In this document: piece after piece, positions 2,242 to 50,384 of the stretch
How the letters are laid out: each line of letters begins with the position of its first letter
Numbering within the stretch: position 1 is the stretch's first letter
Assembly (NCBI GenBank): GCA_051294905.1
Contig: CM119371.1
Span: 6,822,001-6,886,000 of the forward strand
Direction: 5' to 3'
Length of the DNA stretch: 64,000 bases
Origin: Botryllus schlosseri
Lineage: Eukaryota
The notes under the pieces: generated by a model
What the model saw: only the letters and a program-made list of their open reading frames with translations
Told to the model about the DNA's origin: nothing
Databases searched by the model: none
Position numbers and translations under genes: made by a program

Positions 2242-2452
2242 TTTACATAGCATTTAAAAAAAAATTAGATTACAATTACTGAATTTACGAAAACTTGCAC
2301 ATTGTATGAAGTTCAGTTCATATTAAATCACAGAGTTCCTTATCATAAGCACGAGAATGGCAAACTCCTGTTTCTTGGCTCGATTCACGCGATACAGTTC
2401 TCCTAGATCCTCTTCATAAAAGCCAGAAAATAGATACGCTATCACATTAGAG

Positions 2453-3471
2453 CAGGGGTGGGCAAACTACGGCCCGCAGGCCGCATGCGGCCCGCAACAC
2501 CGTTCTGTCCGGCCCGCAAGAGTCTAAAGAATTATTTTTTAATATTGATAAAATGCGTACGAAAAATCGAATTAATGCAGGGACTTGATTAACTTTTTCT
2601 TAGTATATTTCACCATGATAATCCAAAGACAGTGGTTCTGAAGGGGGGCTCGAAGCTGAGCTCAACTGAGAAAAATTTTCGCGCTTCGCGCAATTTACAT
2701 CCAATTCATAGCTGTTATTGCTCTTTATTTACTCTGAATTACATGTTGAAAAAACCTCTCATCCACAGTCGCAACCTTCCATGCCATCAAACTACCCGTG
2801 AGGTTTGCATAGCATCCTGGTTGCGTTTTGTGATATGACGATAAGGGGGCGCGAAATCTTTCATCATCACAGGTGTCTTAAAAAGTTTGAGAACCACTGA
2901 TCTAAGGTAAATACTTAATATCACAGCGGGATAGCTGCAATAACATTGACATAATTTGGATCACCAGTGGGATTTCAGATTGGCTACTACATTTTTAATT
3001 ATTTCAGTGATGTGCTTATAAAAAACGATTCGAGCGTGTCTTAGGTAGATTCGTTGTCTGTACGTATAGAATGGGGTGGTGGTATATATATTTTATCTCC
3101 ACATAGTAGAAGCTGACATGGTCGTGATGCTGTCAGCATTGTGTGGCCCGGAACTGAACCAAAAGTGGAATTAGTAAATCTATGAACAGATCGCTTCTCA
3201 CAGATTTGAATTTCAATCCTGTTCTAAAAATCAGGCAAATTGGTTATTGAGGTCCGCCAGCCTATGAAATCTCGCCACTATATATGTTTCTGACGCATGT
3301 ACGATATCATCAAAGCAATGATTGGCTTGACACATATCTCCATGTCCTCACTATATAATCAAATATCAATATTGCGTTTTTGGTTTATAATCCCAATTTT
3401 ATTTAGTGCGGCCCGCGAATGGATTCGGATGTTGAATGCGGCCCGCGAGCTCAAAAGTTTGCCCACCCCTG
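2453..3471. mobile_element. hAT Buster-type MITE with a nested hAT MITE at 2630-2899
   Basis: TIR CAGGGGTGGGCAAACT / AGTTTGCCCACCCCTG and TSD CATTAGAG on both sides. The paralogous site near 52840 is empty. The inner element has CAGTGGTTCT / AGAACCACTG ends. Confidence 0.9.
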
Positions 3472-4539
3472 CATTAGAGCATAGAAATATTTCACAAATC
3501 AGATAAGAATTTCATGACTAGAATTATCTAGTTGTCCAAGTCTGCACAGTGGTGGTCAGTAACAAAGTACTTTTTCCAAGTAATCGAGTATTTCCCCACT
3601 ACTGGTAGCACCTACTAGAGTAACTAAAATTTCCAATACTTTTACTTGTAATCTGTCATATTTCGTAACTTGACTACTTTCACTATTTCCAGTTTGTCAA
3701 GAGGAAGTGTTATGTTCTCCCAATAAGAGAGTTACAGCGTGACCAAGACGGAGAAATTCAGGTGCTGCTGTAGCGGAGAGCTCAGACTTGTCGCGCTTTG
3801 TGCGAATATATGGAGCGACCAATATCTTTCCACTAAAGCAGGGGTGGCCAGCAGTTTCGGCCAGAGGTCCACATGCGATCTAAGAGCCTTTGCGCGGGCC
3901 ACTTGAATGTTGATGACCTTTTCAGTCGTCCGATAGGAGTGAACCAGACTAGGTACCGGTGAAAACAAGACTTATCTGACTACGCATCAAAATCGGTACC
4001 TATTATTTCATGAAAACTCCTAGCTGCGCGAGGGGAGAAAGATTTCAAAGTTAATGAATGAATTCGGCAAATTATACCGTACCTTGCATATATTGCGGGC
4101 CGTCTTTGTTGACCGCTAGGCACATTTGGCAAGGGCAAGGAAGTCGCATGTTGGACGACACGTTCTCTCGTAATTGCGAATATATAGTTAGGCTCAATTC
4201 CGTATTCTGGGCGTATTTGGGGATACCCATACTAAAAGCAAGAAATCGAGTGAAAATAAATCGCGCGAAGTGCTGAGAAAAATTTACAGTCAAATAAATC
4301 TGCCTCGATCTATTCTACTTGATGGTCATATACGAAGATCTACGAAAATTGTGACTGGCCCGTGGCTTATACGCCTACGCGACATAACTGATATTTTAGT
4401 CATCAACATCCCAAATTTTGCGATCAGGTAAATCAAATTTTTGGTTTGCCTTTGCAAGTTCATAATAAATTACCTGGGTAAGTCATTTTTTATATTATTT
4501 CCAATTTCGAGAATTACCGGGTCATGGGTTGGCTGCCCC

Positions 4540-11328: not shown

Positions 11329-12957
11329 CTATCTCTTCAAAAATACGGATGTGTAAATTTGAAAACCTTGATCTACTTTTGGTTTCACTATCGTCCATTT
11401 ATCCTGCGATGAATCAAACTTTTCAATTGTGTTAGAAGTTTCTCCATCTGTTACTGCAAAAATCCACTTGTCAATGTGATAAGCAGAAACTGGACCGTGA
11501 CAAGCATTCATACAAGATAATGAAGTCCACTGAGCTGAAGTAACATCGTAACATTCTACGTTGTCGATTTTCTTTCCTCCACTCACCCCACCGATCACAA
11601 ATATCTTCTGATCAACTGCAACAACACCACTCCCACACACAGGATATCTCATTGGGTCGAGATCAACCCACTCTGATGAAGATGGAGTGAATCTGCAGAA
11701 TGATGGAACTATGACACCATCTTGTGCTATACCGCCGATGCAATAGATGGAGTCATTCAATGATACGAGACTTGTTACACGAATCTCTGAAGGTTTGTCT
11801 TCTAGTTGAAACCATTGATTCACAAGAGAAGTAAATATTTCCACATCACTTGTTGCTTTATTATAACTTCCTCCAACAACAAAAATCGATCCCGACAAAG
11901 AAACTGAGCGAGGATACCATCCATGGTCACAAATCATATCTTTTATCCTTTCCCATTTTGAATTTTTGCTCTGAAAATTGAGTCGATGAACTGATTTATT
12001 CCTACATAAAATGTAGATATACGAGTCTAGAGAAATCGCTGAGAAATTTGTTAAATTCCCAAACTTCTCAACATGAAACTTTTCTACTTTCTCAGTTACT
12101 GGATTGAAGGATCGGATACAATCTGCGTCATCATCAAAAAGAATTATCAATTCATCATTGACAATTTCTTTATTCATTTTGTGCGATGCCTTTGAAGCTT
12201 CTAAAAGATGTCCAGTGATCAACTTGTACAGTCCCAAGTCGTTATTGATAATTTGGTTTGATTTCAAAAGACGTTCTAAAAATGCCGGAGGTACTTTATC
12301 AAACTTGATTGCTTCAAGACATTCGTCCAAATGTTCCTGATTTTTGCGATTTTTCTCAATCCAATTGAACAATAGCGTAAGTTTTTCTTCTTCGCACAAC
12401 TTTGATTTTTCTGAGATCACAAATTTGAGGATGTTGGTTTTTTCAATGCCTCCAAATTCAGGTTGGTTTGATATTTTCATGATATTTTCAATAAAAAACG
12501 CTTCACATCGTGTAGAGAGGGCATCCAGTCCATATATATCGGCAACATTTCTTGTGGGAAAGTAGTTCTCTACATCAACTGATTCCTCCAAAACGTCAGA
12601 TACTGCCTGCTTCACATCTTCCAACTGCATCATGATTGCGACATGTAGAAGATCATTCATCTTTTTATCAGGAATCTCAAATTTGCCCGAGTATATGAAA
12701 TCAATGCAGTTTTTCACACTCTGAGAATCGACCTCTTTCAAAACGACTTTTCCTTCACGACTCTCTTTAGTGTCGTGTTTCAACATCGCTTTGAAATAAG
12801 CACAACCAGCCGACAATACATTTTTGTGAGTGTAATAGACATCATCTCCCACTTGAATTATGAAATCACAATGATCGTTTTCTTGCTTCATTCGATGTAT
12901 TTCGTCCATCATCTTCACTGAATGTTTCTCTACATTTCTACACACAATCTGCACCAT
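11329..12957 (-). CDS. BTB-BACK-Kelch (kelch-like) protein, paralog 1, 542 aa, single coding exon
   Basis: Uninterrupted ORF with a BTB motif (HCDFIIQVG..THKNVLSAGCAYFKAML..CIDFIYSG), BACK helices (EEEKLTLLFNWI) and kelch repeats with GG and Y/W motifs (IFVVGG, IYCIGG, IFVIGG, VECYD..QW). Confidence 0.95.
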   Translation of the reverse strand: MVQIVCRNVEKHSVKMMDEIHRMKQENDHCDFIIQVGDDVYYTHKNVLSAGCAYFKAMLKHDTKESREGKVVLKEVDSQSVKNCIDFIYSGKFEIPDKKMNDLLHVAIMMQLEDVKQAVSDVLEESVDVENYFPTRNVADIYGLDALSTRCEAFFIENIMKISNQPEFGGIEKTNILKFVISEKSKLCEEEKLTLLFNWIEKNRKNQEHLDECLEAIKFDKVPPAFLERLLKSNQIINNDLGLYKLITGHLLEASKASHKMNKEIVNDELIILFDDDADCIRSFNPVTEKVEKFHVEKFGNLTNFSAISLDSYIYILCRNKSVHRLNFQSKNSKWERIKDMICDHGWYPRSVSLSGSIFVVGGSYNKATSDVEIFTSLVNQWFQLEDKPSEIRVTSLVSLNDSIYCIGGIAQDGVIVPSFCRFTPSSSEWVDLDPMRYPVCGSGVVAVDQKIFVIGGVSGGKKIDNVECYDVTSAQWTSLSCMNACHGPVSAYHIDKWIFAVTDGETSNTIEKFDSSQDKWTIVKPKVDQGFQIYTSVFLKR

Positions 12958-14986
12958 GATTGTCGATCAACTATAATTATCCTACGATTATTATAATATA
13001 GTCAAGCACTGTTATTGAATTAAAGATGATTAGTTAACTGAAGACTCAAGTAATGCCTGTTGAAAGAATCGTAATACGTATATCAACATCTCGAGAATGA
13101 ATTGAAGGACCTTCAACTACCCACAAGGTGAACACTGAACAGTGCTAAATCAGACGCAACCCTGCCATAATGCAGTTATGAAAACTTCATCCATCGATTT
13201 GCTTTACTTTTTATTCGTTGTATTATTGAGTATTGACACGAAACCTAAGAGTTATTGCGGTCTAATACCCCCACCTCGCGAATGATCGAGTTGATTATCC
13301 GTAATCTAAATTGTATTTTGGAACATCGTCAATTAATTTCATACTGTGGTATATTCCAGGAGCGGCCGCATCAGCTTCATCCTCCAACCGAATATCACAA
13401 AGATTGGTTTTAACAGAGAAGCAACACGAAAATCACACTGATATCACTCCGTGTTTGGAAACGAAATCAGCGAAGCATGTAGCTTGTCAGTGTCATCTAA
13501 CGGATAATTAGTTTTTGCATTTGCAGTGTAGCCGTTACCACCAATGATATAATATTTATCATTGCGGTTACTGACGCGATAAACCTTGTGCTAGCAGTAA
13601 CAGTTATTCAGTTTATGAATATTTTATTCATTTCAAAACACCACAAGACTGCGACTAGACGATGTAGACAGGGATATTTAGAACTAGTTCTAGATATCCG
13701 TGGATGTAGAGAAGAGGCATGCACTCACACTGAATGGAAAAAAGTAAAGCAGAAAATATAAAAGACAAGCTAGCCATACAAATGGGTACACCGGTACAAT
13801 CTTTGAAAATAGCGGGATTACCTCCAGCAAAAAGTGGAGTACGTTACCTGCATCCGCGTGACACTCTCCCTGACTGTAAAATCTGCATTCACCGTGTGCC
13901 CTTTGACATTCGTTTGTTGTTTTAGTTTCATCATGGAAAACTGAATGGGATAGAACGGTAACTACGTGGCCTGTCAATCATTTACGGTTGAATAACAATC
14001 AGTAGAGCCAGAATCTTTCGATGGTTTGCTGTTATTCTCCGGCTTACGTAACAGCGTACAACGGGCCAAGTAAGTGCTATTATTATTATCTTAAGTAACT
14101 TGTCTTGTCTAAATTACTTTGAATGTAATTATTGACAGTATCTGGCATGTGCCTTGATAACGTTATGAAGTGAATGACTTGTAAACTCCTTGACACAGAA
14201 ATGTCCCAACACTGCAAACTCAGGCCTCTCGCGCTTTCCCTTCACTCAGTTTTTCTTTCACATTGTCAGGTGATTGCCCAAACAAAGGTCAACTTTCCGG
14301 CCCAGCTCTCGAAATGGCCGCCGGAGCGTTACTGCAGTGCTGACTGATTATGTCTCTGTCGAATTCGGCCTTATATTTAACCTCAATTCTCAAAAAAAGA
14401 GGACATTTGGGCGTCCTCCAAGGACACTTTCACAAAAGTAAAAAAGAGGGCAAATCCTCTTAAAAGAGGACGTATTGTAACCCTACAATACAGAATGTTT
14501 GGTGATGACGCTGGCACGAAGATGATATCTTTTTCGAATGGACAGCATCTGTTGCAGCCTGTGCTAATGTTGAACATCATTACTATAAACGTTGAAGGCT
14601 ACTTTGGGTAAGTTTGATCTTTGTAGATGCCTGAGATTATGGGATGGTATTAATCCAAGTTTTGAATCGGTCTGTGCTGATTTGTTATGAGGCTTTCTTG
14701 TGATCTGTATACAGGGCAAACTAGTTGTTTACCTAGACTTATTAGACCGAAAAGCATGTCATCTAATTCTGTCTATTCTAACTAATTTTGAAATACTGTG
14801 TACTGTGTAGCTATAATTCTGATGCGGTTTGAATAAAAACTGTGTACTCCTAATTCAAATTCTAGTCTAATTTGTAAAAAGTGTATCGCTCTAATTCTGA
14901 TATAATTTGGAAAAGCTGAAAATTTCCTAGTTGTTCAAATTTGATGCAGTGGTAGTGTTAACATTTGTGTTACTCGTGCCAAGAAA

Positions 14987-24627: not shown

Positions 24628-25651
24628 CAGGGTTGTAATGACTCGAGTCATGACTCGACTCAAGTTAGACTCGAGTCACGATTTTCTAATGACTCGACTT
24701 GACTCGAGTCATTTTCTCAAAACACAGAAATGACTCGAGTTGACTCGAGTCATTTCCTCGAAATACAGGAATGCCTCGACTTGACTCGAGTCATTTTCTC
24801 AAAATACGGAAATGACTCGACTCGAGTAAACGTGTGTATTGACTCGACTTGGACTCGAGTCATTGCGCATGACTCGAACCAAGTCATATGACTCGAGACT
24901 CAGACGACCAAGACCGACATTCATTGTAATTTCGCAGAACAAATAAAGTAACCACCCTATTGGGATTTCTTCTATTGGTACTGGTACTTGAAAATGCAAC
25001 CAAAAAATGTTAAAAGTGAGGAAAATCAGTATTATAGAAATGCGAACTATTCAATATCAACAAACAGAGTTATAAAAGTGGGTTTAGCACAGGGTTGTAA
25101 TGACTCGAGTCATGACTCGACTCGAGTCACGATTTTTGGATGACTTGACTCGATTCGAGACATTTTCTCAAAATACGGAAATGACTCGACTCGACTCAAG
25201 TCAATCTGTGTATTGACTTGGACTCGAGTCATTGCGCATGACTCGAAGCAAGTCATTGACTCGAGATACAGACGGCCAAGACCGACATTTCATTGTAATT
25301 TCGAAGTCAACACATTATTGGGATTGGGTTTGTAGGTACTGATGCTTGAAAATGCGACCAGAAACTGCTAAAAGTGAGGAAAATTGCTATATTATAAATG
25401 CGAACCATTCAATATCACCAAACAGAGTTAAAAAAGAGGGTTTAGGAAGACTTTAACTGGAAACTGAGCAGTCAACACAATGACTTGGACTCGAGTCATA
25501 ATACTATGACTCGGACTCGATCCTCTGTTCGCTGACTTGGACTCGGACTTGACTCGGTGGGAATTGAAAATGACTCGACTTGACTCGAGTCAAAACTAGA
25601 AAAGTGGGGTTGACTTGTGACTCGGAGCTTTATGACTTGGTTACAACCCTG
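24628..25651 (+). mobile_element. Complete GACTCGAGTC-rich element with an internal head duplication
   Basis: TIR CAGGGTTGTAA / TTACAACCCTG and flanking GAATTAG on both sides. A second left end lies at 25090. Confidence 0.85.
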
Positions 25652-29872: not shown

Positions 29873-31483
29873 CTATCTCTTCACAAATACGGATCTGTAA
29901 ATGTCCATTTGTCTTGTAAATGTCCATTTGTCTTGCGATGTATCATACTTTTCAATTGCCTTAGACGTTCTGAAATCTGCTACTGCAATAATCCACTTGT
30001 CAATGTGATATGCAGAAACCCACCCATGACAAGCATTCATAGAAGATAATGAAGTCCACTGAGATGAAGTAACATCATAGCATTCAACTGTATTGATGAC
30101 CTTTCCACTCCATCCACCGATCACAAATATCTTCTGATCAACTGCAACAGCACCACTCTCATAAACAGGATATCTCATTGGGTCGAGATCAACCCACTCT
30201 GACGAGGATGGAGTGAATCTGCTGAATGAAGAAACTGGAATAAGATCTTGTCCTCTACCTCCGATACAATAGATGGAATCATTCAATGATACGAGACTTG
30301 CTGCACAAATCCCTGTAGGTTTGTCTTCTAGCTGAATCCATTGATTCACGGGTGGTTTAAATATTTCCACATCACATGTTGCTTCAAGATAACTTCCTCC
30401 GACAACGAGTATTGATCCTGACAAAGAAACTGAGCAAGGATCGGTTCCATGATCACAAATCATATCTTTCGTCCTTTCCCATTTTGAATTTTTGCTCTGA
30501 AAATTGAGTCGATGAACTGATCTATTCTCACATAAAACGTAGATATACGAGCCTAGAGAAATTGCCGAAAAATTTGTTAAATTCAGAAACTTCTCATCAT
30601 GAAACTTCTCTACTTTCTCTGTTACTGGATTGAAGGATCGGATACAATCTGCCTTAGGATCAAAAAGAATTATCAATTCATCTTTTCCAATTTTTTCGTT
30701 TGTTTTGTGTGATGCTTTATACGTTTTCAAAAGATGTCCATTGATCAACTTGTACAGTCCAAAGTCGTTACTGATAACTACGTTTGATTCCAAAAGACAT
30801 TCTAAAAATGCCGGAGAGACTTTATGAAACTTGATTGCTTCGAGACAATCGCGCAAATGTTCTACATTATTGCGATTTTTCTCAACCCAATTGAACAATA
30901 CCGTTAGTTTTTCTTCTTCGCATAACTTTGATTGTTCCAACATCACATATTTGAGGAAGTTAGTTTTTTCAATGCTTCCAAATTCCGATTGATTTGATAT
31001 TTCCATGATATTTTCAAGAAAAAACGCTCTACATCGCGTAGACACGGCATCCAGTCCATACATATCGGCGACATTTCTTGTAGAAAAGTAATTCTTAACA
31101 TTAATTGATTCCACCAAAACGTCAGATATTGCCTGTTTCACATCTTCCAACTGCAACATGATCGCGACATGAATAAGATTATTCATCTTTTCTTCAGGAA
31201 TCTCAAATCTGCCGGAATATATGAAATCAATGCAGCTTTTCACACACCGAGAATCAACGTCTTTCAAAACAACTTTTCCTTCACGATTCTCTTTTGTGTC
31301 GTGTTTTAACATAGCTTTGAAATAAGCACAACCAGCCAACAATACATTTCTGTGAGTGTAGTAGACATCATCTCCCACTTGAATTATGAAATCACAATGA
31401 TCGTTTTCTTGCTTCATTCGATGTAATTCTTCCATCATCTTCACTGAATGTTTCTCTACATTTGGACACACAATCTGCACCAT
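29873..31483 (-). CDS. BTB-BACK-Kelch protein, paralog 2, 536 aa from the ATG at 31483
   Basis: Colinear with paralog 1. The ORF track starts at an upstream TTG; the shared ATG (MVQIVC) is at 31483. The C-terminus has been remodelled by an indel. Confidence 0.93.
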   Translation of the reverse strand: MVQIVCPNVEKHSVKMMEELHRMKQENDHCDFIIQVGDDVYYTHRNVLLAGCAYFKAMLKHDTKENREGKVVLKDVDSRCVKSCIDFIYSGRFEIPEEKMNNLIHVAIMLQLEDVKQAISDVLVESINVKNYFSTRNVADMYGLDAVSTRCRAFFLENIMEISNQSEFGSIEKTNFLKYVMLEQSKLCEEEKLTVLFNWVEKNRNNVEHLRDCLEAIKFHKVSPAFLECLLESNVVISNDFGLYKLINGHLLKTYKASHKTNEKIGKDELIILFDPKADCIRSFNPVTEKVEKFHDEKFLNLTNFSAISLGSYIYVLCENRSVHRLNFQSKNSKWERTKDMICDHGTDPCSVSLSGSILVVGGSYLEATCDVEIFKPPVNQWIQLEDKPTGICAASLVSLNDSIYCIGGRGQDLIPVSSFSRFTPSSSEWVDLDPMRYPVYESGAVAVDQKIFVIGGWSGKVINTVECYDVTSSQWTSLSSMNACHGWVSAYHIDKWIIAVADFRTSKAIEKYDTSQDKWTFTRQMDIYRSVFVKR

Positions 31484-34180
31484 GCTTGTCAATCATCCAC
31501 AATTGGCTATAATTATAGAGTGATCCTACGATTATTATGATATAGTCAAGCACTGTTATTGAAGGAAAGATGATGAGTAGGGCGATTTTCTTGAGATGTC
31601 AATATAAGTCTAAATTGAAGCGCTAGGTCAAAAATTGTTCACAAAGTCAAAATTTGTGTGACCTCTGCATTTCGTTTGTCCAGTAGATTTTGCACTGTCG
31701 GTGAACTTATCATTGTCCGCTCATTGTGAATCATAAATGGTATCAAGCAGACACTACTAATAAGCATTGGTCAGAAACGAAATTTATGAAATAGTCAAAT
31801 AGCATACGTGTAGTCTACATGCACTTAGTCAAGTATTCAAGGACTTGGACTTGCAGTCTTTCTTAATCATTTGTTCGACCCAAGCAGCTGAGCTACAGTA
31901 CATGTATTTTCAATTTGGTCAAGTGGGAAGCAGCGTTCGGTTATACTTACATTAATTACACAATTTAACGAAACCAGATAAACAACAACCTGATATTATT
32001 CAAAACACTGAGGCGAAGTGTAGATGTCAAACAAGCAGTAGTAACTAAAGCGAAAGAATCAAAACTTCTGTACAATATCATCTATACATAGTGACCATTA
32101 GAATATGCAACCTAAATTGCATATTTTCCTTAAGTAAAAGAAACCGTTATTGGCTTTGGGAATAGTGAGGATTAACACATCTGCGAAATGCAGTGGTTCT
32201 TGACCTTTTCATGGATGCAGCCCAATTTTCATTTCGCAAATATGCCATGATCCACAACTCAGCCTCAATTTCTATCTAAGCGGTGGCAATATGGCAGGTT
32301 TAGAGAGGTGACCTATTTAATGGGTGTTACATCACAATTCCCTTGTCATTGACATAAGTTATTGTTCAACTCAATAGCAGGTTGTAAATTGAGCATGGGG
32401 CGTCAATATCATTAACGAGCGGCACAGTGAAATTTTACGATTCTTCAAGGGATATCTGGACCTCGACAACTAGAACTTTTCAGATTTTTCAAATTAGGGC
32501 AAAATCAGAATAATAGCTACACTGTTTTTTTTTCAAATTAAGGGTAAAATCAGAATTATAGCTGAACATTATTTTCCAAACTAGATAAAAATTAGAAATA
32601 TAGTTACACTTTTTTCCAAATTATATTAGAATAGCCGAGTTCACGAAAACTTGGACATTAAATCAAGTTCAGTTCATATCAAATCATCGTTGCGAGCACG
32701 ATCAAGTCAAATGTCTGTACCGCAAGCTTAGCTCGTTTTGAGCTATACAGTTCTTCTGTAGCATTTGCAGGAAAACCGGAAATTAGATTAGAATTAAAAT
32801 TAGAGCATAGAAACATTTCTGAAATTAAATTTTAATTAGAGAAAGGGCACATTTCACGAAATCGATTACGTGCATTTCAATCGAATCAGTCAAATTGGAC
32901 AACTAAAATTATCTAGTTGTCCAAGTAGGTCTGGACAGTCTCCGCCTTATTGGGTCAACTGTGTGATTTGGAGCCCGAGTTGGATTGTTACTTGGTGCCT
33001 GCAGTGCGCTTTGCCTGGTCACTAGATGTCGACAAAATGAAGGAGGCGCTTTTCGTAATGAGTTCACGACAAATGTGAAATTTTGTCGGTGTCTGCTTCT
33101 GTGACAACCTGCGATCCAGTGATGGGGCTGGGGTTTAAATTTTACGAATTCTGCGTTTGGCTGCTTCGAGCCACCGCATTCTTACTCCCCTTCAAAATTT
33201 TCCGGGTATGCGCTGCTTCACGTCCTCCTAGATCTGCAAAAAATAGTAGCGAGTCAGTCAATACTAGCATTGGAATCACATGTTATTAGGATATTTTACA
33301 AATCCCGGGATTTCGAGAAAGCATCTTCTAGAGCAGTGGTTCTCAACCGGGGGTCCGCGGAGCCTCAAAATAGTTGATAAGCTAATTTGTATTTTTTCAA
33401 ATTCGGAAAATCACGAGGCACTTTCGCTTCATTACTCGAAAGAGTGCGGGGCTGACATCAACAGAATGGCAGTCTGAGGTGAAATATCAGACTCATTTTA
33501 ATTGCTAAATAGCGATAGCCTAGGGATACAAACATTTTTCTGTTACGAGATGTTTTGTTGGATGAGTAAGGTCAGGCACGGTGATTTCAAAATGTTTACA
33601 AAAACCCATTTTCTCTTTAGATAACCATTTTTCCATAACAACTTCACGATAAACTGCTAGATAGAAATGACCAGGATTGTGATAAGGGGCGTGCAGCTTC
33701 TCCAGTCGGCTGGTCCGATATGGAAAAATTAGGTACTGGAGGCGGACCAGATTCCTGAGTTGATACATAAATCGTGTATTTATCCACCTATATATCTATT
33801 GCAGAGGTGGGCAACCTTTTTGGCGTCCACGGCCGCATTTCGAATACTTCGGCGCCATACGGCCGCCAGCCATATGTGAGTTGACTAAAAAAATCTCAAT
33901 CTTCCGTTTTGAATCCCGAAATACCCGTTAACGTTATTTGGGTTGATAAAGTCAACCATACCCATTGTCGTCGCGAATGCCGAAATCCACATTTCACGCC
34001 ACTTTAGTGCAATCCACAAGCTTGAAGACGCGGTATAATTGCCTACGAAGACATTTGGCCGCCCTCGGAGGACATTTTAGCTTTGTTTAAAAACTTAATT
34101 TCTACTAATCTTATCATATCTAATAAATACCAAACATATTTTGAAACGAATATATTTAAGGAAAGTCTCTAACATTGAAA

Positions 34181-35998
34181 TCAGTGACTTCCTTGATTTT
34201 GCATACGAGATGACAAACTTGCAAAATTGGGAACCTCACGCGACACCATAAGTCTTAGTTGCGACTCTAGGTTTCCGTTCAGTAAGCGAGTTCGGTACTC
34301 GTTTTTCAGGTATTTCATTTGCGAAAAGGCAGACTCGCACACGTAAGTGCTTCCGAAAATAACAAGAGTTTCTTTAGCCAATTCTCGCAAAAGTGGATAT
34401 TCATGGGCCATTTTCCACGTGTCAATCAAATTCTCCTCGCACTTGAACTTTGTCACAAGCTGCTCATCATTCTTCAATTCCAACAGCTCCATCTGAAGGT
34501 GTGGCGGTGCACTTTCCGTTTCCACCAGGTGTGGAAAGGCAACAAGTCGTAATGTATGTGATATTTTTTGGAAATCTTTGAAACGATCTGCGAAATCCTG
34601 CAACACAGTATCAAAAATCCCCGAAAATAAAGTGATCGGAATCTTTTCTACCTTTATTTCGCAGCTGTCGATGAGAGACTTAAGTTGTGTAAAATGGAAA
34701 AAATCACGCTGCTGAATATGAAGTTTAAGGAGACGACATTTGTCACGAAAATCCGATACTTTTTTGTACATGGTGCATATCGTTGCTTCTTTTCCTTGTA
34801 GGCTTCGGTTTAAAATGTTAACATGGGACAGAAAATCCACAAGAAACGCCAAATATATGACAAAGCTCTCATTTTGTAAGGGGCAGTCTTTATTTTTTGT
34901 GGAATAAAATTCCAGTATTTCTTCTCGCAACTGTAGAACACGACGAGATGTGTCTCCTTGGGACAACCAACGTACTGCGGCGTGGTAGAGAATGTCTTCT
35001 GCCGACGTTTCGCGCTCTTGCAGAAGTTCTTGAAATTGCCTATGATGAAGACCATTTGCACGAATGTACAAGATGATGCGATTGACGTCTTTCAGAGTGT
35101 CATTTAAGGCAACAGATTTGACACTCAAGGCTTCTTGGTGGATAATACAATGAAGGTTTGTGAGCTGGTTATTATCGTACTCTTTCGACACGAATTCTGA
35201 AAATCTTGTCACAAAGCCATTTGTGTTACCTATCATTGCAGGTGCTCCATCTGTACAAATACCGCGAAGATTTTTCAAGTCTAATCCATTGCGAATGCAA
35301 GCATTCTTAACAGCCCCAAATATGTCTTCACCACGAGTGTGGGTGGAGAGTGTTTCCATTGAGAGCAGATCTTCGCAGAACTCAAAATTTGGAGACAGAG
35401 AGCGAATGAAGATCAATAGTTGTGCAGAGTCCTTAATGTCAGTCGATTCGTCGATAGCCAGTGAAAATAAAGTTGCTTCCTCATTAACCTTTGTCTGTAT
35501 GGAGATCGTCAACTGTTTGGCGATATCATCTTGCCGACGCTGAATTGTACGACGCGAGAGAGGAATTGGAGAATAATCAGTTTCCTTACCAGGATGAATG
35601 CACCTAACAACGTCCACGAGACATCGCTTATGTAGTTCGCCATCTGAATAAGGCTTTCCCGCTGCACCAAGATGATATGCGACTATATAAGACGCTTCGC
35701 ACAACTTATTTTTCGACTGAATGAAAGCTGATATGCAAGATGTCTGCATTTGCACACTTTTCTTCAAACTTTCGAGACGACTTTTCCTCGACTCACCCAC
35801 CATTTTTGCGTACTTGTGTGACTCATGACGACGAAAATGCTGCCTTGCATTATCTCCTTTAACAGTTTTGACCACTTGATTGCATATCAGACACATCATA
35901 GTATGGGCTGCCGTTTCTACCATAAAATAATCCAACTCCCATTTGATATTAAATGCCCTCTTCTCCTCTGTTACTGTTCTTTTTCGTTTTACTGACAT
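34181..35998 (-). CDS. hAT transposase, Buster/SPIN/GTF2IRD2-like group, copy A, 605 aa from the ATG
   Basis: Contains an N-terminal zinc finger (CLIC..HFRRH), the catalytic motifs AIDESTD and CTDGAPAM, CxxH (HCIIHQE), RW (VRWLS) and the C-terminal dimerisation motif FGSTYVCESAFS. The ORF is intact. The likely ATG (MSVKRKR) is at 35998; the track starts at GTG 36100. Confidence 0.95.
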   Translation of the reverse strand: MSVKRKRTVTEEKRAFNIKWELDYFMVETAAHTMMCLICNQVVKTVKGDNARQHFRRHESHKYAKMVGESRKSRLESLKKSVQMQTSCISAFIQSKNKLCEASYIVAYHLGAAGKPYSDGELHKRCLVDVVRCIHPGKETDYSPIPLSRRTIQRRQDDIAKQLTISIQTKVNEEATLFSLAIDESTDIKDSAQLLIFIRSLSPNFEFCEDLLSMETLSTHTRGEDIFGAVKNACIRNGLDLKNLRGICTDGAPAMIGNTNGFVTRFSEFVSKEYDNNQLTNLHCIIHQEALSVKSVALNDTLKDVNRIILYIRANGLHHRQFQELLQERETSAEDILYHAAVRWLSQGDTSRRVLQLREEILEFYSTKNKDCPLQNESFVIYLAFLVDFLSHVNILNRSLQGKEATICTMYKKVSDFRDKCRLLKLHIQQRDFFHFTQLKSLIDSCEIKVEKIPITLFSGIFDTVLQDFADRFKDFQKISHTLRLVAFPHLVETESAPPHLQMELLELKNDEQLVTKFKCEENLIDTWKMAHEYPLLRELAKETLVIFGSTYVCESAFSQMKYLKNEYRTRLLNGNLESQLRLMVSREVPNFASLSSRMQNQGSH

Positions 35999-36602
35999 AT
36001 TGCGATGTAGACCAACTTTATAATGTAATTGGGCTATAAGGAAAAAGTTTTGTCTCAATGTATTATTCTCTTTCCGTTTGCTCAATACACCCACACCCAC
36101 TCAATGTTATCCGCTTACCAAGGCTTTTATAACTACGGTTCAACCTATCGCAGTATCGCCAATAGGCCCCTCACATTTGGACTTCGCGACAAGACTGACT
36201 AAGCTTAGTCCTTGGTCCTCATACTTAACCGACATTTGCGAAGTGTGACGTAACAATGCAATAATAAAACGCTAGGCGAAGTCAGCTTTACCGGCAACCG
36301 GTAGTCATGACAAGTGACGACTGGAAATAAAATTATCCAATTCACTGAAGGCGTTACACAGACAATTACGGGTTCATGTTAATGGAAACTTTCAAGATTG
36401 TATAGAAACTCCTTCTGTCCACATACATGAGGATTGGTCAATTTCATAATGGTTGACTCCAATACATACAGATGAGAAGCAGATCTCTATATTTAGCAAT
36501 CATTATTGTGCCCTCAACTCTCGATAAAGTGCACGATAGTCGCATATTCGTATCGCAGGAAGCCTAATAAGCAAATCTGAAATTGAAGAACCCGGACTAG
36601 GA

Positions 36603-36684
36603 CGGGGCTCGTTCACTTTCGGACCAAAAACACATTTTCCCCGTAAGGATGTAGTGAGTTTGGTCCGAAAGTGAACGAGCCCCG
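36603..36684. repeat. 26-bp perfect inverted repeat (hairpin) in the hAT 5' non-coding region; also at 40116-40197
   Basis: CGGGGCTCGTTCACTTTCGGACCAAA ... TTTGGTCCGAAAGTGAACGAGCCCCG. Confidence 0.9.
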
Positions 36685-36952
36685 CAGGTCCGTCTTTTAG
36701 TGGGTAGATTGCAGTATTATATTATGTCGCTAAAAGCAGCTGGAAACGCAGTCACTGAGTATGCAGTGAAAGAGTTTACCACAGTGATTTAACAATACCC
36801 TCCATCGTCGTAATAAGTTTTATCATACATGTAACATATGATCCATCAACACACGGCCGCCAGCACATGCATTTCACATCACGCGCTCACGGCCGCACAA
36901 TTATGCCTCCACGGCCGCATGCGGCCGTACGGCCGCAGGTTGCCCACCCCTG

Positions 36953-37314
36953 GCCTACAGTTACAACTCTGCTACCAGATTGTTGCAATTCAAAAGTTAC
37001 GTCGAATGAGCCTATCGGCGTATTCCTGGCTATTGTAGTTTAGGAGATATTGGCAGATTTAGCCATTTTGGGGGGTATGAAAATTTATGAAAAGTTCAAT
37101 TCCACCAAGATTTCTCTATGTTCCCGAGGGCCTACAGTTACAACTCTGCTACCAGATTGTTGCAATTCAAAAGTTACGTCGAATGAGCCTATCGGCGTAT
37201 TCCTGGCTATTGTAGTTTAGGAGATATTGGCAGATTTAGCCATTTTGGGGGGTATGAAAATTTATGAAAAGTTCAATTCCACCAAGATTTCTCTATGTTC
37301 CCGAGGGCCTACAG
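36953..37314. repeat. Two identical 177-bp tandem monomers plus 8 bp (satellite-like cargo between the hAT copies)
   Basis: GCCTACAG recurs at 36953, 37130 and 37307 (period 177). The two monomers read identical, and I found no copy elsewhere in the window. Confidence 0.92.
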
Positions 37315-40300
37315 CAGAGGTGGGCAACCTTTTTGGCGTCCACGGCCGCATTTCGAATACTTCGGCGCCATACGGCCGCCAGCCATATGTGAGTTGACTA
37401 AAAAAATCTCAATCTTCCGTTTTGAATCCCGAAATACCCGTTAACGTTATTTGGGTTGATAAAGTCAACCATACCCATTGTCGTCGCGAATGCCGAAATC
37501 CACATTTCACGCCACTTTAGTGCAATCCACAAGCTTGAAGACGCGGTATAATTGCCTACGAAGACATTTGGCCGCCCTCGGAGGACATTTTAGCTTTGTT
37601 TAAAAACTTAATTTCTACTAATCTTATCATATCTAATAAATACCAAACATATTTTGAAACGAATATATTTAAGGAAAGTCTCTAACATTGAAATCAGTGA
37701 CTTCCTTGATTTTGCATACGAGATGACAAACTTGCAAAATTGGGAACCTCACGCGACACCATAAGTCTTAGTTGCGACTCTAGGTTTCCGTTCAGTAAGC
37801 GAGTTCGGTACTCGTTTTTCAGGTATTTCATTTGCGAAAAGGCAGACTCGCACACGTAAGTGCTTCCGAAAATAACAAGAGTTTCTTTAGCCAATTCTCG
37901 CAAAAGTGGATATTCATGGGCCATTTTCCACGTGTCAATCAAATTCTCCTCGCACTTGAACTTTGTCACAAGCTGCTCATCATTCTTCAATTCCAACAGC
38001 TCCATCTGAAGGTGTGGCGGTGCACTTTCCGTTTCCACCAGGTGTGGAAAGGCAACAAGTCGTAATGTATGTGATATTTTTTGGAAATCTTTGAAACGAT
38101 CTGCGAAATCCTGCAACACAGTATCAAAAATCCCCGAAAATAAAGTGATCGGAATCTTTTCTACCTTTATTTCGCAGCTGTCGATGAGAGACTTAAGTTG
38201 TGTAAAATGGAAAAAATCACGCTGCTGAATATGAAGTTTAAGGAGACGACATTTGTCACGAAAATCCGATACTTTTTTGTACATGGTGCATATCGTTGCT
38301 TCTTTTCCTTGTAGGCTTCGGTTTAAAATGTTAACATGGGACAGAAAATCCACAAGAAACGCCAAATATATGACAAAGCTCTCATTTTGTAAGGGGCAGT
38401 CTTTATTTTTTGTGGAATAAAATTCCAGTATTTCTTCTCGCAACTGTAGAACACGACGAGATGTGTCTCCTTGGGACAACCAACGTACTGCGGCGTGGTA
38501 GAGAATGTCTTCTGCCGACGTTTCGCGCTCTTGCAGAAGTTCTTGAAATTGCCTATGATGAAGACCATTTGCACGAATGTACAAGATGATGCGATTGACG
38601 TCTTTCAGAGTGTCATTTAAGGCAACAGATTTGACACTCAAGGCTTCTTGGTGGATAATACAATGAAGGTTTGTGAGCTGGTTATTATCGTACTCTTTCG
38701 ACACGAATTCTGAAAATCTTGTCACAAAGCCATTTGTGTTACCTATCATTGCAGGTGCTCCATCTGTACAAATACCGCGAAGATTTTTCAAGTCTAATCC
38801 ATTGCGAATGCAAGCATTCTTAACAGCCCCAAATATGTCTTCACCACGAGTGTGGGTGGAGAGTGTTTCCATTGAGAGCAGATCTTCGCAGAACTCAAAA
38901 TTTGGAGACAGAGAGCGAATGAAGATCAATAGTTGTGCAGAGTCCTTAATGTCAGTCGATTCGTCGATAGCCAGTGAAAATAAAGTTGCTTCCTCATTAA
39001 CCTTTGTCTGTATGGAGATCGTCAACTGTTTGGCGATATCATCTTGCCGACGCTGAATTGTACGACGCGAGAGAGGAATTGGAGAATAATCAGTTTCCTT
39101 ACCAGGATGAATGCACCTAACAACGTCCACGAGACATCGCTTATGTAGTTCGCCATCTGAATAAGGCTTTCCCGCTGCACCAAGATGATATGCGACTATA
39201 TAAGACGCTTCGCACAACTTATTTTTCGACTGAATGAAAGCTGATATGCAAGATGTCTGCATTTGCACACTTTTCTTCAAACTTTCGAGACGACTTTTCC
39301 TCGACTCACCCACCATTTTTGCGTACTTGTGTGACTCATGACGACGAAAATGCTGCCTTGCATTATCTCCTTTAACAGTTTTGACCACTTGATTGCATAT
39401 CAGACACATCATAGTATGGGCTGCCGTTTCTACCATAAAATAATCCAACTCCCATTTGATATTAAATGCCCTCTTCTCCTCTGTTACTGTTCTTTTTCGT
39501 TTTACTGACATATTGCGATGTAGACCAACTTTATAATGTAATTGGGCTATAAGGAAAAAGTTTTGTCTCAATGTATTATTCTCTTTCCGTTTGCTCAATA
39601 CACCCACACCCACTCAATGTTATCCGCTTACCAAGGCTTTTATAACTACGGTTCAACCTATCGCAGTATCGCCAATAGGCCCCTCACATTTGGACTTCGC
39701 GACAAGACTGACTAAGCTTAGTCCTTGGTCCTCATACTTAACCGACATTTGCGAAGTGTGACGTAACAATGCAATAATAAAACGCTAGGCGAAGTCAGCT
39801 TTACCGGCAACCGGTAGTCATGACAAGTGACGACTGGAAATAAAATTATCCAATTCACTGAAGGCGTTACACAGACAATTACGGGTTCATGTTAATGGAA
39901 ACTTTCAAGATTGTATAGAAACTCCTTCTGTCCACATACATGAGGATTGGTCAATTTCATAATGGTTGACTCCAATACATACAGATGAGAAGCAGATCTC
40001 TATATTTAGCAATCATTATTGTGCCCTCAACTCTCGATAAAGTGCACGATAGTCGCATATTCGTATCGCAGGAAGCCTAATAAGCAAATCTGAAATTGAA
40101 GAACCCGGACTAGGACGGGGCTCGTTCACTTTCGGACCAAAAACACATTTTCCCCGTAAGGATGTAGTGAGTTTGGTCCGAAAGTGAACGAGCCCCGCAG
40201 GTCCGTCTTTTAGTGGGTAGATTGCAGTATTATATTATGTCGCTAAAAGCAGCTGGAAACGCAGTCACTGAGTATGCAGTGAAAGAGTTTACCACAGTGA

Positions 40301-40465
40301 TTTAACAATACCCTCCATCGTCGTAATAAGTTTTATCATACATGTAACATATGATCCATCAACACACGGCCGCCAGCACATGCATTTCACATCACGCGCT
40401 CACGGCCGCACAATTATGCCTCCACGGCCGCATGCGGCCGTACGGCCGCAGGTTGCCCACCCCTG
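37315..40465 (-). mobile_element. Autonomous hAT (Buster-type) transposon, copy B, 3151 bp
   Basis: Same TIRs and length as copy A. Left flank GCCTACAG, right flank ATCTATTG. Confidence 0.95.
37694..39511 (-). CDS. hAT transposase, copy B (translation identical to copy A)
   Basis: Identical translation, offset exactly 3513 bp from copy A. Confidence 0.95.
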   Translation of the reverse strand: MSVKRKRTVTEEKRAFNIKWELDYFMVETAAHTMMCLICNQVVKTVKGDNARQHFRRHESHKYAKMVGESRKSRLESLKKSVQMQTSCISAFIQSKNKLCEASYIVAYHLGAAGKPYSDGELHKRCLVDVVRCIHPGKETDYSPIPLSRRTIQRRQDDIAKQLTISIQTKVNEEATLFSLAIDESTDIKDSAQLLIFIRSLSPNFEFCEDLLSMETLSTHTRGEDIFGAVKNACIRNGLDLKNLRGICTDGAPAMIGNTNGFVTRFSEFVSKEYDNNQLTNLHCIIHQEALSVKSVALNDTLKDVNRIILYIRANGLHHRQFQELLQERETSAEDILYHAAVRWLSQGDTSRRVLQLREEILEFYSTKNKDCPLQNESFVIYLAFLVDFLSHVNILNRSLQGKEATICTMYKKVSDFRDKCRLLKLHIQQRDFFHFTQLKSLIDSCEIKVEKIPITLFSGIFDTVLQDFADRFKDFQKISHTLRLVAFPHLVETESAPPHLQMELLELKNDEQLVTKFKCEENLIDTWKMAHEYPLLRELAKETLVIFGSTYVCESAFSQMKYLKNEYRTRLLNGNLESQLRLMVSREVPNFASLSSRMQNQGSH

Positions 40466-41259
40466 ATCTATTGTAACCTTTAAGTTTAAATTAGACACCA
40501 AAAACAGTAATTGTGGATTATTCGTAATGTAATTCAATAGCTGTTGAAGTCAATGAGACAGCTGTGGTAATCAAAGTTGTCAACAAGTTCTTTAAACTCT
40601 GGCTGCATGTCAGCAGTAGAAACCCTTGGGAGAGAATACAAGTGAATGACAGTTAGATTGTTAATGTTCATGGTAGAAAATGTTTGCTCGCAAATGTATG
40701 TAGACCCGCGGGTCACATTATCATGGGACACCGGAGACTGTTCGTCAATTTTGGTGCCATGTTTATTGTGATCATACCCAAATGAGTCGTCTGAAGCGTT
40801 ACGTATTATTATTTCATTCGCCAACATCTGTATTTGTGGAAATGGATTTTCGGCGCTCGTTAATATCCTATCGAAGGCGCGGATTTTCAAGACACGACCA
40901 TGTATTACAAGAACTGCAATTGCCGAATTCACTTTGAAGTAATAGTAGTAAACTCAAGTTCTAGATCGATAATAGGATCTTAATTTCAAGTATAGGCATT
41001 TTGATGCTGATAATCACTAAGTTTATGGTTATCATTTGCACAAGACAAATGACGTTTGCACGATAATTGAGCTAAATTTGAACTACTACTTTGTGGGGGT
41101 CTGGGAGGGTCCGTGACAGTCCGAAAGGGATTCGCGAATACAAAAAGGTTGGGAACCACTGTTCTAGAGCTGAAGAAGTGCTTAGTTTGCTCTTAAAGCA
41201 GCGTTACAATATCATTTGAATGTCTTGAACACGTTACATGACATTACAAACTATTGCAT

Positions 41260-46922: not shown

Positions 46923-48563
46923 TCAGTTGAGTGCAATCTCTCTCTTCACAAATACAGATTTGTAAATTCGACAACATCGATCTACTTTTGGTTTCACTAC
47001 AGTCCATTTGTCTTGTGATATATCATATTTTTCAATTTGATTAGAGGTTTCTCCATCCGTTACTGCAAAAATCCACTTGCCAATGTGATAAGTAGAAATT
47101 CTATAATGACAAGCATTCATAGAAGATAATGAAGTCCACTGAGCTGAAGAAACATCGTAACATTCTACGTTGTCGACATGGAATCCTCCCCTGACCCCAC
47201 CGATCACAAATATCTTTTGATGAATTGCAACAACACCACTCGCACGTACAGGATATCTCATTGGGTTGAGATCAACCCACTCTGATGAGGATGGAGTGAA
47301 TCTGCAGAATGATGAAACTTCATCATAATCCTGTTTTATACCTCCAATACAATAGATGAAATCATTTGTTGATACGAGACTAGCATCATATATCGCTGTT
47401 GGTTTGTCTTCTAATTGAATCCATTGATTCAGGGAAGAAATAAACATTTCCACATCACTTGTTGCTTTATTGCTTGCTCCAACAACAAATATCGATCCTG
47501 AAAAAGAAACTGAGCAAGGCCGGCATCCATGATCACAAAGCATATCGTTCATTCTTTCCCATTTTGAACTTTTGCTCTGAAAATTGAGCCGATGAACTGA
47601 TTTATTCCCACATAAAATGTAGATATATGAGTCTAGAGAAATCGCAGAAAACTTTTTTAAATTCTCATACTTCTCATCATGAAACTTCTCAAGTTTCTCA
47701 GTTACCGGATTAAAGGATATGATACAATCTGCCTTAACATCAAAAAGAATTATCAATTCATCATTGCCAATTTCTTTGTTTGTTTTCTGTGATGCTTTCG
47801 GAGCTTTCAAAAGATGTCCAGTGATCAACTTGTACAATCCTAAGTCGTTATTGATGATTAGGTTTGATTCCAAAAGACATTCTAAAAATGCCGGAGAGAC
47901 TTTATCAAACTTGATTGCTTCTAGACATTCGTGCAAATGTTCCTGATTTTTGCAATTTTTCTCGACCCAATTGAACAATAAAGTTAGTTTTTCTTCTTCG
48001 CATACCTTTGATTGTTCCGACATCACAGATTTGAGGAGGTCAGTTTTTTCAATGCTGCCAAATTCAGGTTGGTTTGATATTTCTATGATATTTTCATGAA
48101 AAAATGCTCTACATCGCGTAGAGACGGCATCCAGTCCATACATATCGGCGACATTTCTTGTGGGAAAGTAGTTCTCTACATTAACTGATCGCTCCAAAAC
48201 GTCAGATACTGCCTGTTTCACATCTTCCAATTGCATCATGATTGCGACATGAAGAAGATCATTCATCTTTTCATCAGAAATCTCAAATTTGCCAGAATAT
48301 ATGAAATCGATGCAGTTTTTCACACACTGAGAATCGACCTCTTTAAAAAGAACTTTTCCTTCACGACTCTCTTTGGTGTCATGTTTCAACATAGCTTTGA
48401 AATAAGCACAACCAGCCGACAACACATTTTTATGAGTGTAATAGACATCATCTCCTACTTGAATTATGAAATCACAATGATCATTTTCTTGCTTCATTCG
48501 ATGTAATTCTTCCATCATCTTCACTGAATGTTTCTCAACATTTCGACACACAATCTGCACCAT
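46923..48563 (-). CDS. BTB-BACK-Kelch protein, paralog 3, 546 aa from the ATG at 48563
   Basis: Colinear with paralogs 1 and 2. The TAG used in paralogs 1 and 2 is GAG here, which adds EIALN. Confidence 0.93.
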   Translation of the reverse strand: MVQIVCRNVEKHSVKMMEELHRMKQENDHCDFIIQVGDDVYYTHKNVLSAGCAYFKAMLKHDTKESREGKVLFKEVDSQCVKNCIDFIYSGKFEISDEKMNDLLHVAIMMQLEDVKQAVSDVLERSVNVENYFPTRNVADMYGLDAVSTRCRAFFHENIIEISNQPEFGSIEKTDLLKSVMSEQSKVCEEEKLTLLFNWVEKNCKNQEHLHECLEAIKFDKVSPAFLECLLESNLIINNDLGLYKLITGHLLKAPKASQKTNKEIGNDELIILFDVKADCIISFNPVTEKLEKFHDEKYENLKKFSAISLDSYIYILCGNKSVHRLNFQSKSSKWERMNDMLCDHGCRPCSVSFSGSIFVVGASNKATSDVEMFISSLNQWIQLEDKPTAIYDASLVSTNDFIYCIGGIKQDYDEVSSFCRFTPSSSEWVDLNPMRYPVRASGVVAIHQKIFVIGGVRGGFHVDNVECYDVSSAQWTSLSSMNACHYRISTYHIGKWIFAVTDGETSNQIEKYDISQDKWTVVKPKVDRCCRIYKSVFVKREIALN

Positions 48564-49949
48564 GATTGTCAATCAACTACAGTATATAATTATTCGACGA
48601 TTACTATAATATAGCCAAGTACTGTTACTGAATTAAAGATGATTAGTTAACTATTCATTAGTAATGCCTGTTCTGTTGAAGGAATCATAATAATCCGTAT
48701 CAACGTCAAGAGTACGAATTGAAGGAAATTCAACTACACACAAGGTGAACACTGACCAGTGCTAAATCAGAGACATCCCTGCCAAACTGCCATAATGCAG
48801 TTATAAAAACTTCTTCCATCGATTTGCTTTACTTTTTATTCATTGTATAGACACGAAACGAAAGAGTTATTGCAGTCGATTACTACGACCTCAGGAATGA
48901 TCGAGTTGATTATCCGTAATCGAAATTGTATTTTGGAACATATTTAAATAATTCTGTACTATGGTATATTCCAGGGGTGGGCGCACCTGTTTCATGCTCC
49001 AACCGAATATATCAAAAATTGATTTTAAAAGAGCAGCAACAAGAAAGATCACGCTGATTTCACTCCGTGTTTGGAAACGAAATCAGCGAAGCATGAGGCT
49101 TGTCAGTGCTATCTCACGGATAATTAGTTTTTGCATTTGCAGTGCGGCTGTTTACCAATGATAAATATATATGTCATTGCGGTTACTGACGGGATAAGCC
49201 TTGTTCTATCAGTAACCGCTATTCAGTTTATTATTATTTTCTTCATTTCAAAACACCACAAGACTGCGACTAGGCGATATAGAGAAGAGGCATGCACGCA
49301 CACTGAATGAAAAGTACAGCAGAAAATATAAAAGACAAGCTAGCCGTACAAATGGGTAAAATCTTCGAAAATATATGCAATTACGATAGTTATAGGTCCA
49401 AAGAATAGTCCAAGTAGTTGTGGAAGTAAAATTTCAAAATGTCACCATTATGGTATGTAGCGCAAATAAGCAGAACGCACAAAAGTACTTTGAATAGGGA
49501 CAATCTTCAGTAATATGTTCAGTTACGATAAGTGACTATTTTACGGGCTTCTTAAGACAATTTCACTCATAAAAACGATCCCAATTATCCAAAAGCTTTC
49601 CCAAACCCAAAGTGTAAAAATTAGTTTGCATATAATCTGTTCAAGTAGTTGCTTTTACTAATGGCATAAAAAGATAGCTACTTCAGTACTTCCCAAAAGT
49701 GGTATTACATTGTTATAGACCCCCTCTGGCAATGTCCCTAACTTTGCGCAGGATGACCAATTTTATTGTCGTCATAGCAGTATCAATTCAAACGAGCTTT
49801 CGAACGGCTATAGCGGTATTACTTCTTGCAAGCCGTGGAGAAAATGAACTGCATCCGCGTGACTCTCTCCCTGACTGTAAAATCTGCATTCACTGTGTAC
49901 CCTTTGACATTCATTTGTCGTTATAGTTTTATGCTTGGTTGTTCCAAGT

Positions 49950-50384
49950 CAGGGGCGGGCAACATGAGGCCCGCGGACAGCTTCCGATCGTGTACGATAA
50001 TGTGGCCATCGTCTACATTCACTCGCGAGCCATCGTTTTCGACCATGAACATTAGCCAACAAGACAAAGCCTCGTTCCAATCAACCTTATGTTTACGTGC
50101 AGTATCTACAGAGGGTTGGTACGTCCAACATGCAGCCAGATAGTTCAACGAACTTTCTCGGCCACGGATTAATTTTAACAGCTACTGAATTACATTACGT
50201 TACTGAATTCATTGACTACCGTTTTTGGTCTCCATGCTTTACTCTCAAAGTTTATATTATGTACGATTTGTTCCTTGTATGGATGGATAAAGACGCGATT
50301 GATGTATCGATTCAGCAATCCGGCCCGCCAAGTACTTCATTTTTCCATATCCGGTCCGCCGAACGGAGAAGTTGCCCGCCCCCG
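49950..50384 (+). mobile_element. hAT Buster-type MITE (paralog of 19295-22236)
   Basis: CAGGGGCGGGCAAC / GTTGCCCGCCCCCG. Confidence 0.8.

Follow-up and report, generated by a model that had tools for sequence, protein, structure and literature searches.

The 64-kb window analysed here comprises 64,000 nucleotides of the Botryllus schlosseri genome (assembly GCA_051294905.1, contig CM119371.1, positions 6,822,001 to 6,886,000 of the forward strand) and holds, in a gene-rich region between Kelch-like genes, a compound transposable unit. Within its 6664 bp, two copies of a hAT transposon, here called A and B, lie on either side of two 177-bp units of a satellite, in the order hAT A, two repeats of GCCTACAG plus 169 bp, a third GCCTACAG and hAT B, with ATCTATTG bracketing the whole (Table 1). 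The unit interrupts an older element that resembles a miniature inverted-repeat transposable element (MITE). This layout had been proposed from the letters of the window without database searches (the sequence-only reading), and the coordinates, the bracketing 8-mers, the absence of differences between A and B and the two identical 177-bp units were all recovered.

Table 1. Features of the compound hAT unit and of the element that houses it (window positions).
Feature	Position	Strand	Remark
TTCTAGAG, left target-site duplication of host element	33326..33333		same 8-mer at 41162-41169
Left arm of MITE-like host element, terminal inverted repeat (TIR) CAGTGGTTCTCAACC	33334..33801	+	ends in target 8-mer
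Outer 8-mer ATCTATTG, left copy	33794..33801		TA at positions 4-5; 2 occurrences in window
hAT copy A, 3151 bp	33802..36952	-	transposase gene on minus strand
Transposase open reading frame, copy A, 605 aa	34181..35998	-	uninterrupted
Satellite unit 1 (GCCTACAG + 169 bp)	36953..37129	+	177 bp
Satellite unit 2	37130..37306	+	177 bp; identical to unit 1
Third GCCTACAG	37307..37314		extra copy expected from 8-bp duplication on satellite insertion
hAT copy B, 3151 bp	37315..40465	-	0 differences from copy A
Transposase open reading frame, copy B, 605 aa	37694..39511	-	translation same as copy A
Outer 8-mer ATCTATTG, right copy	40466..40473		second of 2 window occurrences
Right arm of MITE-like host element	40474..41161	+	TIR with 1 mismatch at 41147-41161
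TTCTAGAG, right copy	41162..41169		perfect match to left copy

The two hAT copies agree at every one of their 3151 positions, an identity that may be slightly overstated if the assembly was polished from long reads. They stand in direct orientation; neither has a duplication of its own, and their outer ends share a single 8-bp duplication, ATCTATTG, which is confined to these two places in the window. The cargo between them is a tandem repeat with a period of 177, 2.1 copies and 100% matches (Tandem Repeats Finder), and the 177-mer was found nowhere else within the 64 kb. Apart from its three positions in the cargo, GCCTACAG occurs at three unrelated sites. The probability that an 8-mer matches by chance is about 1.5e-5, and chance is excluded as the source of the bracketing pattern. 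A search for the junction pattern in metagenome contigs returned 0 matches.

Taken together, the inner junctions (right side of copy A, left side of copy B) make up a single standard insertion at GCCTACAG with matching orientation, and the number of GCCTACAG copies in the cargo equals the monomer count plus one. The two outer junctions likewise make up a single standard insertion at ATCTATTG. Therefore, two integrations made by transposase are recorded here, and these were somehow combined. Insertion of the hAT at GCCTACAG in a satellite array is shown by the logic of the junctions. Two single elements in the window serve as controls and carry ordinary matching duplications: the host element, flanked by TTCTAGAG, and a non-autonomous element of 1019 bp (2453-3471, TIR CAGGGGTGGGCAAAC), which is related to the hAT and whose perfect duplication CATTAGAG extends the span to 2445-3479. 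Further TIR-like ends, with 2 mismatches, are found at 10505, 19295, 49950, 52780 and 53214.

The host, a MITE-like hAT-type element, spans 33334-41161, measures 1156 bp without its insert, and has a TIR motif, CAGTGGTTCTCAACC, that matches the window 8 times against 0.15 expected. A paralog at 50168-50382 aligns across the insertion point with 73-80% identity and is too diverged to show a single ATCTATTG. Because both flanks belong to a single MITE-like element, as its left and right arms, and this paralog aligns across the site, they were contiguous before the insertion. The surrounding region houses a tandem gene family, namely three intronless paralogous BTB-BACK-Kelch frames of 539-549 aa on the minus strand (11329-12966, 29873-31492 and 46923-48572), about 17-18 kb apart. 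A further tandem repeat at 24688-25453, with a period of 358, 1.9 copies and 80% matches, has as its building block a 41-bp palindromic unit rich in GACTCGAGTC and is unrelated to the compound unit.

The TIRs of the hAT agree at 15 of their first 16 positions, and their motif is matched 11 times across the window, where 0.01 matches would be expected. A single uninterrupted frame is present in each copy, and the two frames encode the same protein, as the sequence-only reading had stated. In Pfam, the C-terminal hAT dimerisation domain PF05699 reaches 28.2 bits, above its cutoff of 21.4; a SPIN-DOC-type zinc finger also exceeds its cutoff, and DUF4371 falls under its own. A database search yielded 337 relatives at E <= 0.001 among 5476 candidates, the best full-length ones 58-67% identical and one partial sequence 97% identical. 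When the transposase was aligned with 24 relatives, D183, D250, E555, W344, C284 and H287 were invariant in all 25 sequences. The profile of this alignment matches Hermes transposase chains (E 6e-5), with the DE..D, TDGA and CE motifs lining up with Hermes; a search of the PDB with the single sequence found nothing (best E 0.56). The predicted structure has a mean predicted local distance difference test score (pLDDT) of 83.6, and the top 10 Foldseek matches in the PDB are all Hermes, with E values of 1e-10 to 4e-9 and template modelling (TM) scores of 0.50-0.59 by target. From the Hermes alignment and the Hermes literature, we take the D-D-E, W and CxxH residues to have the corresponding catalytic roles. 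With its 8-bp duplication, TIRs, dimerisation domain and Hermes-like fold bearing D-D-E/W/CxxH, the element is a member of the hAT superfamily, which agrees with the earlier assignment to a hAT with an intact-looking transposase.

Within this superfamily, the element appears Buster-like, as judged from its target sites and the names of its relatives. The named relatives are GTF2IRD2-like, ZBED5-like or SPIN-DOC zinc-finger proteins, all of them presumably Buster-derived. Such a derivation is partly stated in PMC3517528, where the Buster target consensus is given as nnnTAnnn. Positions 4-5 read TA in each of the duplications ATCTATTG, GCCTACAG and CATTAGAG, as they do in just 6.9% of the 8-mers in the window, so that the fit of both bracketing 8-mers to this consensus, already pointed out in the sequence-only reading, holds. 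In addition, each element contains ACGGCCGC six times (element positions 28, 58, 3052, 3088, 3110 and 3128), in every case no more than 60 bases from one end or 100 bases from the other. The rest of the window lacks this motif, which looks like a putative subterminal binding repeat. Both ends and the transposase look functional, and the hAT is complete and probably active.

For an independent view of the cargo, contigs of four public runs were placed on window positions 33300-37420, which cover the left two-thirds or so of the unit. One run (X1) is probably the source sample, two (X15 and X18) are other samples under the same species label, and one (X6) carries another species label. The depths given here are sums over contigs and differ from copy numbers. 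Over the two monomers, the summed depth reached 1.0-1.2e7 in X1, 5.5-5.6e6 in X15, 4.0-4.6e6 in X18 and 0.9-1.3e5 in X6, compared with 2.2-4.0e4, 1.3-6.8e3, 47-802 and 0-18, respectively, over the hAT body. The monomers are thus 300 to more than 10000 times deeper than the hAT, by 2.5 to 5 orders of magnitude, in all four runs. Most of the placed contigs fit both monomers (159318 of 231898 in X1, 7738 of 11926 in X15, 51629 of 59156 in X18 and 283 of 380 in X6), and satellite variants are common at 37102/37279, 37147 and 37161. Because the depth gap appears in every run and is accompanied by this diversity of variants, the 177-mer is a very abundant repeat family in several individuals and under a second species label. 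The cargo is a real, abundant satellite; the earlier description of the 177-mer as satellite-like holds, and the single-copy sequence named there as a refutation is removed by the abundance in all four runs.

A tandem arrangement of the 177-mer outside the window is likely. Among the 24 loose contig ends listed (1006 further), none falls at a monomer boundary, and the depth across the junction of the two units is as high as inside them; both features fit arrays. Rfam gave nothing at gathering score over 33700-40600 and no match on the monomer. A 20-base piece of the monomer matched two loci in metagenome contigs over only 21-22 bases, which was set aside as chance. Separately, a contig of X15 leaves the satellite monomer at 37220 and continues into CAGTGGTTCTCAACC, the TIR of the host MITE family; therefore, hAT-type elements land in the 177-mer satellite in other individuals too.

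The same contigs bear on the kinship of the two hAT copies. At no fewer than eight positions (34022, 34024, 34374, 35128, 35823, 36237, 36474 and 36756), A and B both carry a letter that is rare within the hAT family. At 34022, for example, the other letter accounts for 13322.5 of a depth of 13416.9 in X1, 1231.4 of 1231.4 in X15 and 79.1 of 79.1 in X18. Across the eight positions, the other letter makes up 98.7% (34374) to 100% of the depth in X1 and all of it in X15 and X18, except at 34374 (90% and 94%, respectively); contigs drop rare variants, and these figures therefore do not prove that the letters of the window are absent from the runs. On account of these shared rare letters, A and B are each other's closest relatives in a large, near-uniform family. 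A duplication-type origin explains this directly, and macrotransposition and alternative transposition need no further assumption.

Over the 3328 positions compared in the hAT copies and monomers, there are 0 differences, which puts an upper bound of about 4.5e-4 over the mutation rate per site on the age of the duplication. With rates between 1e-8 and 1e-9, the duplication would fall within about 5e4 to 5e5 generations and the event would be recent, with the caveat that gene conversion or polishing might likewise erase differences.

Two further observations concern the hAT itself. A strong hairpin, with a DNA fold of -41.4 kcal/mol and z -11, lies some 600 bp upstream of where the transposase starts, at 36603-36684 in copy A and 40116-40197 in copy B; in Rfam it has miRNA-like matches only, all below threshold. 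In the public runs, the depth over this stretch (bins 36474-36749) exceeds that over the remaining hAT by a factor of 10-100, and 36693/36694 is a point at which many contigs depart from the element; the hairpin stretch is therefore shared with a far more abundant repeat. In X6, the run under the other species label, hAT contigs fall within 34059-36957 with 0-9 differences per 198-656 letters and a depth of about 4-7, and one 328-letter contig departs from the hAT 5 bases beyond the element end. These contigs suggest a closely related species or a recent transfer of the element.

Units of this general anatomy are known from plants. In maize, Ac macrotransposons excise and reinsert as units (PMC9910405, on SP-97 and related alleles); an earlier reference for maize macrotransposons, cited in this literature, is Huang and Dooner 2008. 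At the White Cap locus, a Tam3L macrotransposon was recognised because the boundary elements have no duplication of their own and the outer ends share one 8-mer beside contiguous reference sequence (bioRxiv 10.1101/082677). Like these, the unit described here has two direct hAT elements with host DNA between them, no duplications of their own, one shared outer 8-bp duplication and flanks that are contiguous in the empty state. It differs in that the element is Buster-like, the genome is that of an animal, in keeping with the intronless BTB-BACK-Kelch genes and the animal homologues, and the cargo is 362 bp of a major satellite rather than genes. Moreover, excision and reinsertion have been demonstrated in maize for Ac macrotransposons, whereas the present unit is known from its sequence.

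A related structure, the composite insertion, arises through reversed-ends Ac transposition with re-replication, in which transposon termini come to flank the former donor flanks, switched in position and fused (PMC4270019). According to the same source, the fusion occurs by end joining or by homologous recombination between repeats, and the product, with an 8-bp duplication at its borders, is built like a macrotransposon. The likeness to our unit lies in the transposon termini around former donor flanks and in the one outer 8-bp duplication. The maize cases, unlike this one, come from a known two-element donor, often with a linked duplication or deletion. Because the fused flanks would here be satellite, the fusion junction is seamless and uninformative.

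Among satellite-carrying elements, Tetris and Helentron-borne repeats hold satellite arrays as the central repeats of non-autonomous transposons (cited in PMC11610590). As would be the case here, they bring short arrays of satellite to sites in euchromatin aboard a mobile element. However, Tetris and the Helentron-borne repeats are single non-autonomous elements with internal tandem repeats, whereas here two complete autonomous copies enclose pre-existing monomers of a major satellite, and target-site evidence indicates that the element landed in the satellite first. A partial literature search, judged by titles and the starts of abstracts, found no paper that describes a major satellite carried by two autonomous hAT copies; by title, most of the macrotransposon papers listed concern plants, with a Teratorn review, an Anopheles P-element paper and a Drosophila Galileo paper as exceptions. 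In bacterial composite transposons, the outer ends of two IS copies define the mobile unit. The sequence-only reading had framed the present unit in these terms, and by analogy the role of the outer ends stands; the likeness goes no further, given another transposase family and another domain of life, and the novelty of kind was overstated, as Ac and Tam3L hAT macrotransposons with the same pattern had already been described. The unit is thus a new variant of an anatomy already known from Ac and Tam3L, the new parts being the Buster-type element and the satellite cargo.

Four routes fit the order of the parts: macrotransposition, alternative transposition, recombination or gap repair in situ, and a walk of the assembler through a loop. 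Both models of the sequence-only reading still fit, namely duplication of an element together with its array followed by movement through the outer ends, and insertion into a satellite circle that then recombined with a resident copy; alternative transposition (composite insertion) and gap repair with template switching fit as well. We favour a real compound hAT of the macrotransposon or composite-insertion type, moved as a compound by transposase, and judge the chances of this reading to be about even. A recently active Buster-like hAT would first have inserted at GCCTACAG in an array of the abundant 177-bp satellite. The transposase would then have brought the outward-facing left end of one copy together with another copy's right end, these copies being either neighbours two monomers apart in the array (macrotransposition) or sister copies of one insertion whose satellite flanks were later fused by homologous repair (composite insertion). 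Integration of the paired ends at ATCTATTG, in the older MITE between Kelch-like genes, would have left one 8-bp duplication for the 6664-bp unit and carried the two satellite monomers along. In its sequence, the unit shows the direct orientation, single outer 8-bp duplication and contiguous flanks that mark a macrotransposon; from this we infer the donor configuration and movement in one piece. That a cut-and-paste transposase exported major-satellite monomers to a cluster of genes in euchromatin, carried by a two-copy compound element that is still mobile and is caught here within some 1e4-1e5 generations at most, is put forward tentatively, at somewhat less than an even chance.

Several points weigh against transposase-mediated movement of the compound. 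No contig listed spans the unit or one of its junctions, the longest pieces listed being 116-656 letters, and such short contigs speak neither for nor against the compound structure. The two monomers are identical although the satellite varies at the positions named above; this identity would also follow from a circle, from rolling-circle copying or from an assembly loop that was collapsed. In the literature searched, macrotransposition was found demonstrated only for plant Ac-type elements. The abundance of the satellite, finally, is measured as summed contig depth and not as copy number.

Alternatively, the compound may have been built in situ by recombination at a pre-existing single hAT insertion at ATCTATTG, an origin that we consider unlikely. 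In one version, a circle with the hAT and two monomers integrates into the resident copy by homologous crossover, the circle having come from insertion into a 354-bp satellite circle or from loop-out of an array via recombination between flanking monomers. In another, gap repair after excision switches template to a satellite-borne copy, and the nascent strands anneal via their satellite tails. Such recombination yields exactly the order seen, one hAT in the satellite suffices, and identical monomers would fit a small or rolling-circle-derived circle. Satellites are described as known sources of extrachromosomal circles, and extrachromosomal circular DNA (eccDNA) has been proposed as a means of satellite spread (PMC7403614; PMC11610590). 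The identity of A and B at 3151 positions, including at least eight rare letters, is harder to accommodate, as the resident and partner copies must share one rare sublineage and the resident and satellite-borne copies must be parent and daughter. Moreover, homologous integration of a circle is a rare event in animal germ lines.

The demand for a parent and its daughter also applies to an assembly artefact, to which we assign a low probability. Here, the assembler would have joined two hAT insertions of the same sublineage, one at ATCTATTG and one within a long 177-mer array, along a path from flank to hAT through a satellite loop to hAT and flank, with the array collapsed to two units. In such a genome, all four junctions would be genuine, the walk through the graph would give the order seen, and a loop traversed twice would yield perfect identity of copies and monomers; nothing in the available short-contig data spans the unit. 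Misassembly is rated low because the 64-kb window crosses a multi-copy 3.1-kb repeat without a single N, which implies long reads spanning 6.7 kb. Overlap-based assemblers, in addition, presumably could not join two reads via only 354 bp of satellite, and the many copies of the hAT family make a simple two-way graph loop unlikely. The weakest account, an ordinary hAT insertion followed by an unrelated satellite insertion and a local duplication, with a coincidental 8-mer pattern, appeals only to the general occurrence of local duplications and is rejected as very unlikely on the junction sequences, since a foreign 362 bp would have to abut both element termini to the base, the TA-centred 8-mer is present one time more than the monomer count, and the 177-mer is found nowhere else in the window.

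How satellites arrive at new euchromatic sites is described as largely unresolved, with non-autonomous transposons bearing internal repeats, eccDNA and interlocus gene conversion among the routes proposed (PMC11610590; PMC7403614). At the locus described here, target-site scars record the order of events, with the hAT entering the satellite first and the two-copy unit then reaching a gene-rich site; therefore, the locus offers a concrete, testable case of satellite seeding. Should it prove to be an assembly artefact, it would still provide a useful warning about identical transposon copies that adjoin satellites. If the favoured reading is true, hAT landings in satellite arrays would be a general, testable way of seeding satellites at new animal loci, beside eccDNA and gene conversion. 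It would also extend macrotransposon or composite-insertion behaviour beyond plants and Ac-type elements to the Buster type, a family that includes engineered gene-transfer tools (TcBuster).

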